Source: a virus
Lineage: Duplodnaviria > Heunggongvirae > Uroviricota > Caudoviricetes
Virus record (IMG/VR): IMGVR_UViG_2663762627_000001
Location: 1-4,189 of that record
DNA length: 4,189 nucleotides
Reading direction: 5' to 3' (one strand)
Both the position numbers and the translations under genes were made by a program. The notes below the pieces were generated by a model that did no database searches, was not told the DNA's origin, and worked only from the letters and a program-made list of their open reading frames with translations. Shown here piece by piece: positions 1 to 4,189 of the stretch (its first letter is position 1; each line of letters opens with the position of its first letter).

Positions 1-231
1 GCCTTTGAGGTCGTGGTATGGATGACGGATGGCTGGCCGCTGTATGAATCCCGCCTGAAGGGAAAGCTGCACGTAATCAGCAAGCGTTACACTCAGCGCA
101 TTGAGCGACATAACCTGAATCTGAGACAACATCTGGCAAGGCTGGGACGGAAGTCACTGTCGTTCTCAAAATCGGTGGAGCTGCATGACAAAGTCATCGG
201 GCATTATCTGAACATAAAACACTATCAGTAA
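1..231 (+). CDS. insB: IS1 transposase InsB, C-terminal portion (5'-partial; stop TAA at 229-231)
   Basis: In-frame translation from position 1; the ORF track entry 13..231 begins at an internal GTG. Protein-level recognition of the InsB C-terminus. Confidence 0.9.
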
Positions 232-246
232 GTTGGAGTCATTACC
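224..246. repeat. IS1 terminal inverted repeat (outer end at about 246)
   Basis: The 23 bp atcagtaagttggagtcattacc is the reverse complement of the IS1 terminal repeat GGTAATGACTCCAACTTATTGAT as recalled, with one mismatch. Confidence 0.75.
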
Positions 247-433
247 AGCCATATGTTTTGCGCATGACAGCCAGGAAGACCAGAAGCTGGTGCTGTGTTA
301 ATCCGGCCAGCATTACAGCTTCCAGCAACTCATTTGCAATGCGCGTATAACCATCATCGAGATCTGCCACGCGCGGCTCCTTTTGTGCCATATCCGGCAC
401 TGGAAAATTGAATATCTCAGCAGTGTTTGCCAT
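242..433 (-). pseudogene. Replication initiator O-like gene, N-terminal fragment only, interrupted by IS1
   Basis: The minus-strand product MANTAEIFNFPVPDMAQKEPRVADLDDGYTRIANELLEAVMLAGLTQHQLLVFLAVMRKTYGW aligns with the N-terminus of lambda O (…VADLDDGYARLSNMLLEA…LLAILRKTYGW, from memory). The frame stops at a TAA (242-244) lying inside the IS1 terminal repeat, directly after the W codon (245-247). Start assigned to the ATG at 433-431, which sits 4 nt after a GGGAGG ribosome-binding site; the ORF track's longer form starts at 523. Confidence 0.8.
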
Positions 434-519
434 AATTCCTCCCGCAATGAGTGCGTTACGATTTGCACCTGAAAGTCGGTTCTGTTCCCGCAGACCGGCT
501 TTCGCCATTTCTGAACCTG

Positions 520-1059
520 TCATATTGCCCCCAGCATGGTGGTAACCATCGCCATCAATGGACCAGCCAGATCAGGATCCACACGAAACATCGACACAAT
601 GCCTTCACTCATCTCCTTCAGTTTCTGGTGGCGTGGTGCGTTGAGAATGACCGCCTGTTTTGCCTCGCTGAGCTCCTTTTCCATTTCAACCAGTCGAGCC
701 ATGAAGCTATCCTGCTCAACCAGGTGGCCGCGATATTTCAGCGGTAGTACTGCCAGAATTGCTGGAGTCAGTTCACGCACGTTATTTCGGTATTTTTCAG
801 AATCGAATTTGTTATCGAGAAAGCGGAACAGCTTCTGGCGTGCACGACTGACATCATCAGGAAAATCGATAGTGCCGCCGCCCTGTGCTCGATACTCATT
901 CACAATGAGTGCGGCAACGACATCCTGATTATCTACAGCCGACCAGGCGCGGACGGCATCACGGATTTTTTCGTGGCCTGGCACCTGTTTTATTTGAGAA
1001 CGATTTATCACCGCAGTCGGGATAAATCCGCTAGTCTGTTGGTATGTAATTGGTTGCAT
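520..1059 (-). CDS. CII-position regulatory protein, probably YdaT-family (179 aa from the ATG at 1059; the ORF track's 190-aa form starts at 1092)
   Basis: Long minus-strand ORF directly downstream of cro and upstream of the O-like gene. The ATG at 1059-1057 has an AAGGA ribosome-binding site 9 nt upstream; the ATG at 1092 has none. Motifs EYRAQGGG and LTPAILAVLP are reminiscent of YdaT-family proteins (family assignment from memory, not verified). Its stop overlaps the upstream in-frame ATG of the O frame in an ATGA arrangement (520-523). Confidence 0.6.
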   Translation of the reverse strand: MQPITYQQTSGFIPTAVINRSQIKQVPGHEKIRDAVRAWSAVDNQDVVAALIVNEYRAQGGGTIDFPDDVSRARQKLFRFLDNKFDSEKYRNNVRELTPAILAVLPLKYRGHLVEQDSFMARLVEMEKELSEAKQAVILNAPRHQKLKEMSEGIVSMFRVDPDLAGPLMAMVTTMLGAI

Positions 1060-1082
1060 AATTGATTCCTTTAGTCTGAATT

Positions 1083-1128
1083 GACTGTTCATCAGTCTGT
1101 TAAGTTGATTGCTTATTGTTAAAGAACG
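1083..1128 (-). promoter_or_regulatory. Candidate nutR-like site: boxA-like element plus a small hairpin, between cro and the CII-position gene
   Basis: Minus strand 1128->1115 reads CGTTCTTTAACAAT, one mismatch from the rrn/lambdoid boxA core (T/C)GCTCTTTAACAA as I recall it. 17 nt further downstream, GACTG-ATGAA-CAGTC (1097->1083) forms a 5-bp stem with a 5-nt loop, the same geometry as boxB. Position matches lambda nutR. Confidence 0.35.
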
Positions 1129-1140
1129 TGAAAAGGAAAT

Positions 1141-1371
1141 TTAAGCTGCATTCTTTTCGGTATGTGGAAACAACTTCGGAAGATCCGGGCGAATCTGGTA
1201 TGCCTTAACTACCCCGCCAGTAGCCGTAACAATGCTGCCGACATGTTCAGGGGATACCTTTGCTTTGTTGTGTAGCCACTTATAGACGGCCTGCTGTGAA
1301 ACTTCGCAGGCATCGCCCAGTTTCTTTTGTGAACCGACGATATTGATCGCGGTTTTGATTGCTGGGTTCAT
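1141..1371 (-). CDS. cro: Cro-like HTH repressor (76 aa)
   Basis: Minus-strand ORF divergent from the repressor gene, with a GGAGG ribosome-binding site 5 nt upstream of the ATG (1371-1369). The product MNPAIKTAINIVGSQKKLGDACEVSQQAVYKWLHNKAKV…VKAYQIRPDLPKLFPHTEK has the same pattern as lambda Cro (…[20 protein letters not shown]…VYAEEVKPFPSNKK). Confidence 0.85.
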   Translation of the reverse strand: MNPAIKTAINIVGSQKKLGDACEVSQQAVYKWLHNKAKVSPEHVGSIVTATGGVVKAYQIRPDLPKLFPHTEKNAA

Positions 1372-1398
1372 AACAACCTCCGTGGTTAACTTGAATTA

Positions 1399-1470
1399 AG
1401 ATTAAAACCATGGTTGTTTTTAGTCAACAACCATTTTCGTTTGATGAAATAAAACCTTGGTTGTACATTT
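1399..1470. promoter_or_regulatory. OR-like divergent control region with three operator candidates and PR-like/PRM-like promoters
   Basis: Two perfect 10-bp palindromes, AACCATGGTT (1406-1415) and AACCTTGGTT (1453-1462), flank a half-site-only copy AACCATTTTC (1429-1438); centre spacing is 23 and 24 bp. Minus-strand TTGACT (1427-1422) followed by an AT-rich -10 candidate TAATCT (1404-1399) would drive cro. Plus-strand TTGATG (1441-1446), a 17-bp spacer and TACATT (1464-1469) would place a transcription start at about the cI ATG, giving a leaderless message as at lambda PRM. Confidence 0.5.
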
Positions 1471-1475
1471 GGTCT

Positions 1476-2165
1476 ATGAAAACAACACTCTCAGAAAGAC
1501 TTAAAGAAGCCAGATTAGCGCGAGGCCTTACACAAAAGGCGCTTGGGGATATGGTCGGGGTTAGCCAGGCTGCCATTCAGAAAATCGAAACAGGGAAAGC
1601 TAACCAAACAACTAAAATCGTGGAGATCGCAAACGCTTTAGGTGTGCGCGCAGAATGGTTATCTTCTGGCGTTGGAAATATGTCAGACAGTACCGTGCAA
1701 CCAATACAATCAACTGTCAGCCATTCAAAATACTTCAAGATTGACGTTCTTGATATAGAAGTCAGTGCCGGACCGGGTGTCATCAACCGTGAGTTTGTGG
1801 AAGTTCTACGCTCGGTTGAGTACTCGTTTGACGATGCTCGTCACATGTTCGATGGCAGGAAGGCGGAAAATATCCGCATCATTAACGTGCGCGGTGACAG
1901 CATGTCAGGGACGATCGAACCAGGTGACCTGCTGTTCGTTGATATCACTGTTAAATCTTTCGACGGTGATGGCATCTATGCGTTTCTGTACGACGACACT
2001 GCCCATGTAAAACGTCTTCAAATGATGAAGGATAAGCTGCTGGTTATCTCTGATAACAAGAGCTACTCGCCGTGGGACCCGATCGAGAAAGACGAGATGA
2101 ACCGGGTGTTCATATTCGGTAAGGTCATTGGAAGCATGCCGCAGACGTACAGGAAGCATGGTTAA
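1476..2165 (+). CDS. cI: CI-like prophage repressor (N-terminal HTH, C-terminal S24/LexA-type autoprotease domain), 229 aa
   Basis: The HTH segment LSERLKEARLARGLTQKALGDMVGVSQAAIQKIETGK begins right after the ATG at 1476. The C-terminal half carries a candidate Ala-Gly cleavage site (VSAGPG), the catalytic serine motif GDSM and the lysine motif HVKRL. The ORF track's upstream start at 1410 would run through the operators, so 1476 is preferred. Stop TAA at 2163-2165. Confidence 0.9.
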   Translation: MKTTLSERLKEARLARGLTQKALGDMVGVSQAAIQKIETGKANQTTKIVEIANALGVRAEWLSSGVGNMSDSTVQPIQSTVSHSKYFKIDVLDIEVSAGPGVINREFVEVLRSVEYSFDDARHMFDGRKAENIRIINVRGDSMSGTIEPGDLLFVDITVKSFDGDGIYAFLYDDTAHVKRLQMMKDKLLVISDNKSYSPWDPIEKDEMNRVFIFGKVIGSMPQTYRKHG

Positions 2166-2340
2166 TTTATCTACGACTTAAGGGAGCGAAGGTTAAGGTT
2201 TATACCACTCGGATTAGATATTGCACTAAATTCTCTATAAGAACGCCAAATCTGTTTGCATATTTCAGTAAATATTCTCGTTGTTAGCTGAAATTTGTTG
2301 CTACTGTCAGCAAAATGTCCCCCTATCTCGTAGCGGTTTT

Positions 2341-2386
2341 TATTTCGAATCATTATGTTAAGATGTTTCTGATTATAATGAATGGA
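2341..2386 (+). promoter_or_regulatory. Candidate promoter for the lipoprotein gene
   Basis: Perfect TATAAT at 2374-2379 with TG at 2370-2371, 16 bp upstream of the ATG at 2395, in an AT-rich intergenic tract. No good -35 hexamer; the leader would be very short. Confidence 0.3.
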
Positions 2387-2394
2387 AACATAAA

Positions 2395-2775
2395 ATGAGA
2401 AAAATCCTAATCGCTGCCATGATGGCATCTCTATTGGCTGGGTGTGCTTCTTCAGGCAACCAGCAACTCAAAAATGAAACTGAAATTAGTGTCCAGTCTA
2501 AACTTCAGGAAGGTAAAACAACCAAGAATGAGGTTAAATCTTACTTTGGTTCTCCTGATGCTGTTTCATATACTGACAGTGGAAACGAGATCTGGAAGTA
2601 CGCCTTTGCAAAAGTAAAAGTTAATGGCACCACTTTTATTCCATTCTATGGATTATTCCATAATGGAACGAACGGTACGAAAAAAGAACTTACTATTCTT
2701 TTTAACGATGACACGATTAAGAAATACACAATGTCAGAAACCCAAATAAACTCGAAATCAGGTTGGGCTGACTGA
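2395..2775 (+). CDS. Outer-membrane lipoprotein of unknown function (126 aa), in the rexAB-equivalent slot; fold possibly BamE/SmpA-OmlA-like
   Basis: Signal peptide MRKILIAAMMASLLAG followed by lipobox LAGC; the residue after the Cys is Ala, consistent with outer-membrane sorting. Mature region has a pattern resembling BamE: GKTTKNEV…FGSPD…EIWKY…ELTILFNDD versus BamE GMTQQQV…LGTP…NTWFY…TLTLTFNSS. Codon usage is clearly more AT-rich than flanking genes, and the gene has its own terminator. Confidence 0.85.
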   Translation: MRKILIAAMMASLLAGCASSGNQQLKNETEISVQSKLQEGKTTKNEVKSYFGSPDAVSYTDSGNEIWKYAFAKVKVNGTTFIPFYGLFHNGTNGTKKELTILFNDDTIKKYTMSETQINSKSGWAD

Positions 2776-2783
2776 TAATCATA

Positions 2784-2810
2784 CCCGGCAACCGCGCCGG
2801 GTTTTCTTTT
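2784..2810 (+). terminator. Rho-independent terminator after the lipoprotein gene
   Basis: Stem CCCGGC (2784-2789) / GCCGGG (2796-2801) with loop AACCGC, followed by TTTTCTTTT (2802-2810). Confidence 0.8.
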
Positions 2811-2904
2811 CCTCCCCCTCATAACTCATACCGTCCAAAAAACCACCACACCTCACTTCAGTTATCGCTATGCGATGCAAGTCACAAAATAAATCCATCC
2901 TAAA

Positions 2905-2985
2905 TACAACCAGTTATATTTAAAACAACCGACAAAACAACTTTTGTTGTTGACGATAAAACAACTATAGTTTTAAATAAATTCA
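2905..2985 (+). promoter_or_regulatory. pL/OL-like region: candidate promoter and repeated operator-like motifs
   Basis: TTGACG (2950-2955), a 17-bp spacer, then TTAAAT (2973-2978). The ACAACC-type motif seen in OR recurs here: TACAACCA (2905-2912), AAAACAACC (2922-2930), the inverted repeat AACAAC-TTTT-GTTGTT (2936-2951) overlapping the -35, and AAAACAAC (2958-2965). Confidence 0.4.
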
Positions 2986-3034
2986 TCGCAACGACACAAC
3001 GATACGGTAACCACCTGTTTCACCGTTGCGATGA
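2983..3034. repeat. Perfect 11-bp inverted repeat with a 30-bp spacer in the pL leader
   Basis: TCATCGCAACG (2983-2993) and its exact reverse complement CGTTGCGATGA (3024-3034), immediately downstream of the candidate pL -10. Confidence 0.7.
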
Positions 3035-3255
3035 CCGCTTAGATCCGCAGTTTGAATTTCAGCAGGCTTCGGGGAGTGCGAGGGGTGAAACGGACGCGTG
3101 AACGTCGGTGTGACCAGCTGAAATCAACACAACACTTTATACCTCAGTCGCTTCAACGAGGCGGCTTAGTTATGACAACCGGCGGCCATCCACCGCCTGA
3201 ATACGCGCAGAAGTCTCTATATGTTCAGCAGCCCAGCTTACGGGCAGGAGTTTTT

Positions 3256-3462
3256 ATGGTTCATCAACATTACGGAACGCAGACCGTTAATCGCGGCGCG
3301 GTCATGCCAGGAATGCTGGTCAAACACAAAGATGGTACCTGGACTGCATCAGCTAATTTACGCGGGCGGCTTTATCTGCATCGCGGCATCGAGCGCACTT
3401 ATACCCGTGATTTGCTCGTAGAAGTTTTTCTCGACGGACGCGGTAACGGCCTGAATCACTAA
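3256..3462 (+). CDS. Hypothetical small protein (68 aa) in the N/kil position upstream of gam; may be the C-terminal part of a longer ORF
   Basis: ATG at 3256 has an AGGAG ribosome-binding site 5 nt upstream; stop TAA at 3460-3462. The same open frame extends upstream to a TTG at 3052, with a GTG at 3085 (GGGGAG 8 nt upstream) and an ATG at 3172 (GAGG upstream). Product MVHQHYGTQTVNRGAVMPGMLVKHKDGTWTASANLRGRLYLHRGIERTYTRDLLVEVFLDGRGNGLNH has no family I can recognise. Confidence 0.45.
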   Translation: MVHQHYGTQTVNRGAVMPGMLVKHKDGTWTASANLRGRLYLHRGIERTYTRDLLVEVFLDGRGNGLNH

Positions 3463-3538
3463 CCCCCCTTTCCTGTTTTCCTAATCAGCCTGGCATTTCG
3501 CGGGCGATATTTTCACAGCCATTTTCAGGAGTTCAGCC

Positions 3539-3835
3539 ATGAACGCTTATTACATTCAGGATCGTCTTGAGGCTCAGAGCTGGGCGCGTCACTACCAGCA
3601 GATCGCCCGTGAAGAGAAAGAGGCAGAACTGGCAGACGACATGGAAAAAGGCCTGCCCCAGCATTTGTTTGAATCGCTCTGCATCGATCATTTACAACGC
3701 TGCGGGGCCAGCAAAAAAGCCATTACCCGTGCATTTGATGACGATGTTGAGTTTCAGGAGCGCATGGCAGAACACATCCGGTACATGGTTGAAACCATTG
3801 CTCACCATCAGGTTGATATTGATTCAGAGGTATAA
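3539..3835 (+). CDS. gam: Gam, host RecBCD nuclease inhibitor (98-aa GamS form)
   Basis: Product [98 protein letters not shown] is near-identical to lambda Gam as recalled. AGGAG ribosome-binding site 8 nt upstream; stop TAA at 3833-3835. Confidence 0.95.
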
Positions 3836-3840
3836 AACGG

Positions 3841-4189
3841 ATGAGTACAGCACTCGCAACGCTGGCTGGGAAGCTGGCTGAACGTGTCGGCATGGATTCT
3901 GTCGACCCACAGGAACTGATCACCACTCTTCGCCAGACGGCATTTAAAGGTGATGCCAGCGATGCGCAGTTCATCGCATTGTTGATCGTCGCCAACCAGT
4001 ACGGCCTTAATCCGTGGACGAAAGAAATTTACGCCTTCCCTGACAAGCAGAACGGCATCGTTCCGGTGGTGGGCGTTGATGGCTGGTCCCGCATCATCAA
4101 TGAAAACCAGCAGTTTGATGGCATGGACTTTGAGCAGGACAATGAATCCTGCACATGCCGGATTTACCGCAAGGACCGTAATCATCCGA
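3841..4189 (+). CDS. bet: Bet (Red-beta) single-strand annealing recombinase, N-terminal 116 codons (3'-partial at window end)
   Basis: Product MSTALATLAGKLAERVGMDSVDPQELITTLRQTAFKGDASDAQFIALLIVANQYGLNPWTKEIYAFPDKQNGIVPVVGVDGWSRIINENQQFDGMDFEQDNESCTCRIYRKDRNHP matches lambda Bet as recalled; GAGG 10 nt upstream of the ATG. Confidence 0.95.
   Translation, partial: MSTALATLAGKLAERVGMDSVDPQELITTLRQTAFKGDASDAQFIALLIVANQYGLNPWTKEIYAFPDKQNGIVPVVGVDGWSRIINENQQFDGMDFEQDNESCTCRIYRKDRNHP

Follow-up and report, generated by a model that had tools for sequence, protein, structure and literature searches.

The early region of a lambda-like prophage analyzed here is cut off at one end by a copy of the insertion sequence IS1. 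The most probable reading, which we put at about 0.8, is that IS1 recently transposed into codon 63 of the gene for the replication initiator O of a Bievrevirus-type prophage, and that this prophage has lost its replication and persists passively. The window, that is, the whole stretch of 4,189 bases, could be assigned to such an early region from Pfam matches and from the annotations of identical relatives (Table 1).

The junction between IS1 and the O gene

The O fragment, which runs on the minus strand from position 433 to position 247 of the window, matches the Pfam profile Phage_rep_O over positions 1-42 of 95 (E=4e-15). We judged the extent of domain loss by this Pfam domain coverage; with 42 of the 95 profile positions remaining, the domain is incomplete in the window. 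The fragment is 100% identical to the 5' end of the uninterrupted O genes in NZ_AP022215.1 and CP015912.1, and reading the junction against the uninterrupted copy places the break between O and IS1 exactly between positions 246 and 247. Read on the O strand, the sequence is ...CATATGGCT / TTAATAAA... in the uninterrupted copy and ...CATATGGCT / GGTAATGACTCC... in the window; with longer flanks, the two readings are ...AAAACATATGGCT / TTAATAAAAAA... and ...AAAACATATGGCT / GGTAATGACTCCAAC..., respectively. A first-pass annotation made from the window alone had proposed that IS1 truncates an O-like frame exactly at its terminal repeat, that about 63 codons are left and that the flank at 247-255 is AGCCATATG. 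All three statements are borne out by the comparison with the 100% identical uninterrupted copy, the 63 codons being 62 native ones and one hybrid tryptophan codon.

The same annotation had the frame ending after a conserved KTYGW motif, and here the comparison contradicts it. The junction translates as ...RKTYGW followed by two stops, with the tryptophan codon completed, and the stop supplied, by IS1 bases. The native sequence is KTYGF: the residue at position 63 is phenylalanine (RKTYGFNKK) in 20 of the 20 full-length copies of the window-type O that were examined. Lambda O itself does contain KTYGW; because the tryptophan in the window is made by the junction and the native residue is phenylalanine, the agreement with lambda is a coincidence.

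As it stands, the O frame stops at residue 63 of 309 and is a pseudogene fragment from which the C-terminal, P-interacting half is absent. Neither origin iterons nor an AT-rich tract are present in window positions 247-433. No structures related to O by sequence were found among solved structures. The nine bases that adjoin the end of IS1 are those expected for one copy of a target-site duplication if the event was a simple insertion.

The inserted element can be identified with equal precision. All 246 bases of window positions 1-246 recur without a difference at L002:5001-5246, where a 768-bp IS1 of E. coli AH21C062 ends; this complete copy is annotated with a programmed frameshift. InsB is represented inside the window by its C-terminal 76 residues alone; this segment, translated from positions 1-228, matches the Pfam profile DDE_Tnp_IS1 over positions 57-131 of 131 (E=2.3e-40), and the transposase frame lies antisense to O. 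An imperfect repeat of about 23 bp (GGTRATG...) is present at the exact end of IS1, in window positions 224-246, and the 23-bp ends of the full-length copy at L002:4479-5246 match each other at 20 of 23 positions. Copies of IS1 that are at least 99% identical to window positions 1-246 were found in 1211 E. coli records, and IS1B copies are about 94% identical to the element in the window. Judged by its sequence, this element is a common E. coli IS1 variant.

Two positions come into consideration for the start of O. PGAP and Prodigal both place it 30 codons upstream of the start used here, at ATG 523, where it overlaps the ydaT stop and yields a protein of 339 aa. We favor ATG 433 as the probable start because the alignment with lambda O begins at residue 1 of the shorter form (309 aa) and because GGGAGG, the ribosome-binding site listed in Table 1, lies five bases upstream of it. 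The database start for the window-type O family may thus be 30 codons too long. The conclusion that O is truncated is the same with either start.

Within the first O codons, at 408-436 on the plus strand, there is a promoter-like site that consists of TTGAAT, a 17-nt spacer and CATAAT and has a TG upstream. It is antisense to O and directed toward the 3' end of ydaT, and resembles the lambda oop promoter in position and direction. No terminator was seen downstream of it, and such matches are no commoner in the window than chance would give.

Table 1. Features of the 4,189-base window, in window coordinates
Feature	Position	Strand	Remarks
IS1-family insertion sequence, right-hand 246 bp	1..246	+	element already under way at window start
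insB 3' end, IS1 transposase frame	1..231	+	76 codons and TAA stop at 229-231
IS1 right terminal inverted repeat	224..246		ATCAGTAAGTTGGAGTCATTACC on the plus strand; reverse complement GGTAATGACTCCAACTTACTGAT
Codons made by the junction	242..247	-	hybrid TGG (W63; T from O, GG from IS1), then TAA from the IS1 repeat
Nine bases adjoining the IS1 end	247..255		AGCCATATG; single copy in the uninterrupted prophage (L001:6001-6009)
Lambda-O-type initiator gene, 5' remnant	247..433	-	62 native codons and 1 nucleotide, of 309 codons
Spacer between ydaT and O	434..519	-	GGGAGG ribosome-binding site at 438-443
ydaT, CII-equivalent regulator, intact	520..1059	-	Pfam YdaT_toxin, E=3.2e-28; annotated as 179 aa in relatives
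cro-like repressor (YdaS/Cro family)	1141..1371	-	Pfam YdaS_toxin, E=6.6e-17; P22_Cro, E=7e-5
CI-type repressor, intact	1476..2165	+	Pfam HTH_3, E=2.5e-13; Peptidase_S24, E=1.2e-18
Small lipoprotein gene	2395-2775	+	126 aa; rex position, right after cI
kil	3256-3462	+	
gam	3539-3835	+	
bet, start only	3841 onward	+	window ends inside bet

The uninterrupted prophage and its origin

Outside IS1, all 3943 positions of the window (247-4189) agree with the chromosome of E. coli WP8-S17-ESBL-05 (NZ_AP022215.1); for strain 210205630 the identity is 99.9%. The matching prophage of WP8-S17-ESBL-05 occupies the lambda attachment site, between ybhB and ybhC. Its annotated modules comprise int, xis, exo-bet-gam, kil, cI, cro, ydaT, O, P, the nin-region genes and Q, followed in the late part by lysis genes, terminase, portal, capsid and tail genes, J, lom and tail fibers. 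The O gene of this prophage is continuous, encoding 309 residues without a stop, and is followed by P. The only pseudogene among the modules is ren.

In this prophage (L001:2963-4563), ren is split by an inserted gene for an outer-membrane beta-barrel protein. Two genes of its nin region, emrE and ybcK, are also found in DLP12, the cryptic prophage of K-12, suggesting that DLP12 belongs, in decayed form, to the same, Bievrevirus-like phage lineage.

The uninterrupted O is 97-98% identical to the O proteins of the isolated phages 4A7, Lambda_4C10, Perceval and PhiR34_1, and it is therefore found also in phages that were recovered as complete genomes. Prophages of this kind are widespread, with at least 80% of the non-IS part of the window present in 1472 of 5426 complete E. 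coli genomes, at up to 6 matching places per genome.

Within the uninterrupted O gene, five iterons with a 24-bp spacing and the core TTACCTGATTCGGGTAA occupy O nucleotides 352-464; they are succeeded, at O nucleotides ~467-496, by an AT-rich tract (76% A+T). We take the iterons and the tract together to be a putative origin that is homologous to ori-lambda with a different repeat sequence. The insertion in the window falls after O nucleotide 187, that is, 165 bp before the first iteron, so that the iterons and the AT-rich tract lie 165-310 bp past the break. The proposal that the origin has been cut off from the immunity region, which the first-pass annotation drew from lambda, agrees with this position of both elements beyond the insertion point in the uninterrupted copy.

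The gene order of the WP8-S17-ESBL-05 prophage is that of the window (exo-bet-gam-kil, cargo slot, cI, cro, ydaT, O, P), and the same order is found in Escherichia phage 4A7 (NC_049946.1, Bievrevirus), in which O is 98% identical and the cargo genes after cI differ from those of the window. In both the prophage and phage 4A7, O is continuous (309 or 339 codons, depending on the start) and contains the iterons, in contrast to the window, in which IS1 follows O nucleotide 187.

Lambda (NC_001416) has the same architecture, in which cro is followed by a gene in the CII position, then by O with its internal iterons, and then by P. The four annotated iterons of lambda, at O nucleotides 349-433, occupy the same position in the gene as those of the uninterrupted copy. 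Between the two O proteins there is 67% identity overall, very unevenly spread, with a C-terminal half that is ~99% identical and an N-terminal half that is divergent, a pattern that fits an origin-specific N-terminal domain and a P-binding C-terminal domain. The N-terminal domain and the iteron sequences thus differ between lambda and the window-type prophage, which implies that the latter has a predicted origin specificity other than that of lambda. The CII position is taken here by YdaT, and O of lambda is intact.

Gene content of the early region

The operon that runs into IS1 begins with the cro-like gene, and ydaT lies directly upstream of O in this rightward operon. YdaT has been described as a CII equivalent (PMC9986795). 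A search of the window for the YdaT operator motif from the same study gave nothing above chance. The CI repressor, which combines a helix-turn-helix domain with an S24 self-cleaving peptidase domain, is identical to the copy in the uninterrupted prophage.

The 126-aa lipoprotein encoded after cI gave a weak match to Pfam BamE (E=1.6e-4), below the cut-off, and the names given to its relatives are 'BamE' and 'SEN1984 family lipoprotein'. Downstream of the gene, at 2783-2802, there is a terminator-like hairpin. In relatives, the slot after cI holds quite different cargo, including an ASCH-domain protein, DUF6932 and others, which marks it as a swappable cargo site.

On the leftward side, no open reading frame for an N-like antiterminator was found between the oL/pL-like operator cluster (~2890-2990) and kil. 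The leader of ~480 nt at 2776-3255 is 86% conserved in the isolated phage 4A7. An antitermination RNA of the put type, as in HK022, was considered for this leader and rejected, given no sequence similarity to the HK022 put region, no Rfam match and an unremarkable folding energy (z=0.03).

Other inactivated copies of the same O gene

The same O gene has been hit by IS1 elsewhere. In E. coli AH21C062 (NZ_CP196276.1, L002), whose prophage is a variant ~95% identical to that of the window, the same IS1 variant, identical over the 246 bp, lies in the same orientation relative to O as in the window. This is a simple insertion (L002:4479-5246) at O nucleotides 476-484, in the AT-rich tract of the origin. 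Both junctions are visible, with a 9-bp duplication, TTGTTAGTT; O is present as two pseudogene halves, both of which are kept, as is P.

Nineteen complete E. coli genomes, among them that of strain 165 (NZ_CP020509.1, L004), show a different arrangement, in which the same O breaks off at nucleotide 376, shortly after the first iteron, and its 5' fragment is joined to the right end of an IS1. The element (L004:5478-6245) is of the IS1B type and 94% identical to the one in the window. Its other end joins non-phage DNA, namely a truncated hydrolase gene followed by ompT, envY and nfrA, and no matching target duplication was found at this IS1. The remaining prophage consists of an integrase fragment, cI, cro, ydaT and the O fragment beside a tRNA-Arg gene, the position of DLP12, and contains no Red genes.

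Apart from insertion sequences, the same O has been inactivated independently by a frameshift in ET201 (L005) and by a nonsense mutation in GCA_004212225.1 (L016).

Together with the window, the IS1 copies in the two types of genome give three independent IS1 junctions within 300 bp of O, at nucleotides 187, 376 and 476-484. It is conceivable, and in our judgment quite doubtful, that the O/origin segment is a preferred and possibly selected target of IS1, with recurrent taming of prophages by insertion sequences; the sampling of IS1 junctions was biased toward IS1 copies next to O. If this were true, IS1 hits would be favored since hosts would keep immunity, the Red functions and cargo genes and yet escape killing by prophage replication.

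The far side of the insertion sequence

What lies across the element falls outside the window, whose first base is already part of IS1. We favor a simple insertion, roughly 3:1, over a deletion or rearrangement, because the retained DNA is identical to that of the uninterrupted prophage and because the Red genes, kil and the cargo gene have all been kept. After a simple insertion, the left end of IS1 would adjoin TTATTAAAGCCATATG, with the missing part of O, the iterons and P behind it; given a 9-bp duplication, CAGTTTTTTATTAAAGCCATATG would stand beside that end, ahead of the remainder of O, the five iterons and P.

A rather unlikely arrangement, which nonetheless has precedents among relatives, is that IS1 borders a deletion or inversion, which would put distal O, the origin, P and possibly the late genes elsewhere and make the prophage a remnant. 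IS1-bounded deletions are known from the 19 complete genomes represented by strain 165, and the position of the window's first base within IS1 leaves room for another. Against it, the retained 3943 bp are identical to the uninterrupted prophage, so the event is very recent, and new transpositions as a rule start out as simple insertions of the kind found in AH21C062. Moreover, unlike the remnant of strain 165, the window has kept the Red genes, kil and the lipoprotein gene. O is dead under a deletion or rearrangement too, and only the extent of decay differs. The first-pass annotation had held that an intact O and origin beyond IS1, together with a matching duplication and evidence of IS1 excision, would speak against a defect; the rest of O with a matching duplication is what a simple insertion produces, with O still broken.

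Probable consequences for replication of the prophage

In lambda, O is essential for initiation at ori, as established by genetics. In the window, less than half of the N-terminal origin-binding domain of O is left and the C-terminal half is gone. From lambda biology, it would be expected that the origin stays free of an initiator complex when O is missing and that P is then unable to deliver the DnaB helicase. We infer, on good grounds, that O function has probably been lost and, with it, autonomous replication. The first-pass annotation described the prophage as probably replication-defective, for which the truncated O taken with lambda genetics makes a strong argument, and as cryptic, a description that follows from the replication deficiency, since the truncated gene is one needed for lytic growth in lambda genetics.

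The insertion would also act on the genes around it. Judging from the uninterrupted copy, the origin would at best be displaced by ~0.8 kb from the transcription unit that runs from pR through cro and ydaT into the O fragment. IS1 is strongly polar. Reduced rightward transcription past such a polar element would lower activation of the origin and expression of P, the nin genes and Q. The intact CI would still be cleaved in the SOS response, and kil, gam and bet on the leftward side would then be expressed, as would the excision genes if these are present. With prophage DNA that is not amplified, induction would probably be abortive, and the element would persist solely by being copied passively along with the chromosome. 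In lambda, the N-terminus of O serves as a recognition signal for ClpXP; if the same signal operates here, the 63-residue O stub would probably be degraded fast.

An improbable alternative is that the prophage is still productive, through O supplied in trans, through recombinational repair from a resident prophage or through rare precise excision of IS1. Precise excision of IS1 is indeed rare, which weakens the last of these routes. The other two are favored by the abundance of the O and immunity module (1472 of 5426 complete E. coli genomes, at up to 6 places each). In addition, a defective O157 prophage whose replication gene is disrupted is still spontaneously induced and accumulates circular DNA, and its replication is possibly carried out with replication proteins from other resident prophages (PMC2669165). 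Help in trans would, however, presuppose an origin specificity that is the same in both prophages, and lambdoid phages differ from one another in the N-terminal domain of O; furthermore, the origin would still be displaced from pR transcription for as long as IS1 stays in place.

Occurrence of the junction in sequence collections

The IS1-O junction of the window was sought in several collections. Scans for its exact pattern found none in species-representative genome contigs, JGI metagenome contigs or IMG/VR viral contigs, and none in 25 retrieved loci; megablast found no contiguous IS1-O junction in 5426 complete E. coli genomes or in PLSDB plasmids. The truncated O product is not on record under an exact look-up, either as 63 aa or as 93 aa. 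Look-ups of the CI and YdaT proteins of the window led to long contigs only. Of the 17 places among the matches listed, 16 have an O that is called at full or almost full length (334-339 aa), the exception being the nonsense mutant L016, and in none of these 17 places is there an IS1 junction as in the window.

That the junction is in no other assembly searched, and that the window is bounded by repeats, starting in the multi-copy IS1 and ending in a bet gene common to many lambdoid prophages, might be taken to mean a chimeric assembly with O intact in the organism, which we consider extremely improbable because O switches to IS1 at the exact terminal base of the inverted repeat, as in a transposition product and very unlikely for a random misjoin, and because O and IS1 have no common sequence that could mislead an assembler.

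Ends that fall in repeats, here IS1 and bet, are the pattern of a short-read contig; if the window is one, a second lambdoid prophage may be present in the source genome.

Implications for prophage decay

Prophage decay by IS insertion is textbook knowledge. Lambda r14 (IS1) and r32 (IS2), which were among the earliest insertion sequences to be described, are polar insertions in the cII-O region that are located upstream of O and act by polarity. As in the window, these insertion sequences lie in the rightward early operon, and O/P replication is lowered or abolished; the difference is that here the O coding sequence itself is split. The cryptic lambdoid prophages of E. coli K-12 and O157 likewise decay by IS insertion, and a pool of defective prophages has been described for O157 (PMC2669165).

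Our reading also departs from the first-pass annotation where that saw a likely domesticated or cryptic element that keeps its repressor, lipoprotein and Red genes; domestication is not supported. There are 0 substitutions in 3943 bp relative to a prophage in which ren is the only pseudogene. This identity of all non-IS bases to the WP8-S17-ESBL-05 prophage dates the insertion to the very recent past, too short a time for genes to be lost, so that no selection is needed to account for the presence of the repressor, lipoprotein and Red genes.

The event is an ordinary, recent step in prophage decay. All its components are known, with 100% identity to database sequences, and the insertion site, which occurs in none of the collections searched, makes it a strain-level variant only. 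For annotation, the O remnant is to be treated as a pseudogene, and the prophage, being probably unable to replicate, is not to be counted as an intact, inducible phage. The tryptophan of KTYGW, which derives from IS1, illustrates that an insertion junction can mimic a conserved motif. For the biology of this common E. coli prophage family, the window provides one more example of IS1 in the O/origin segment and raises no new biological question.
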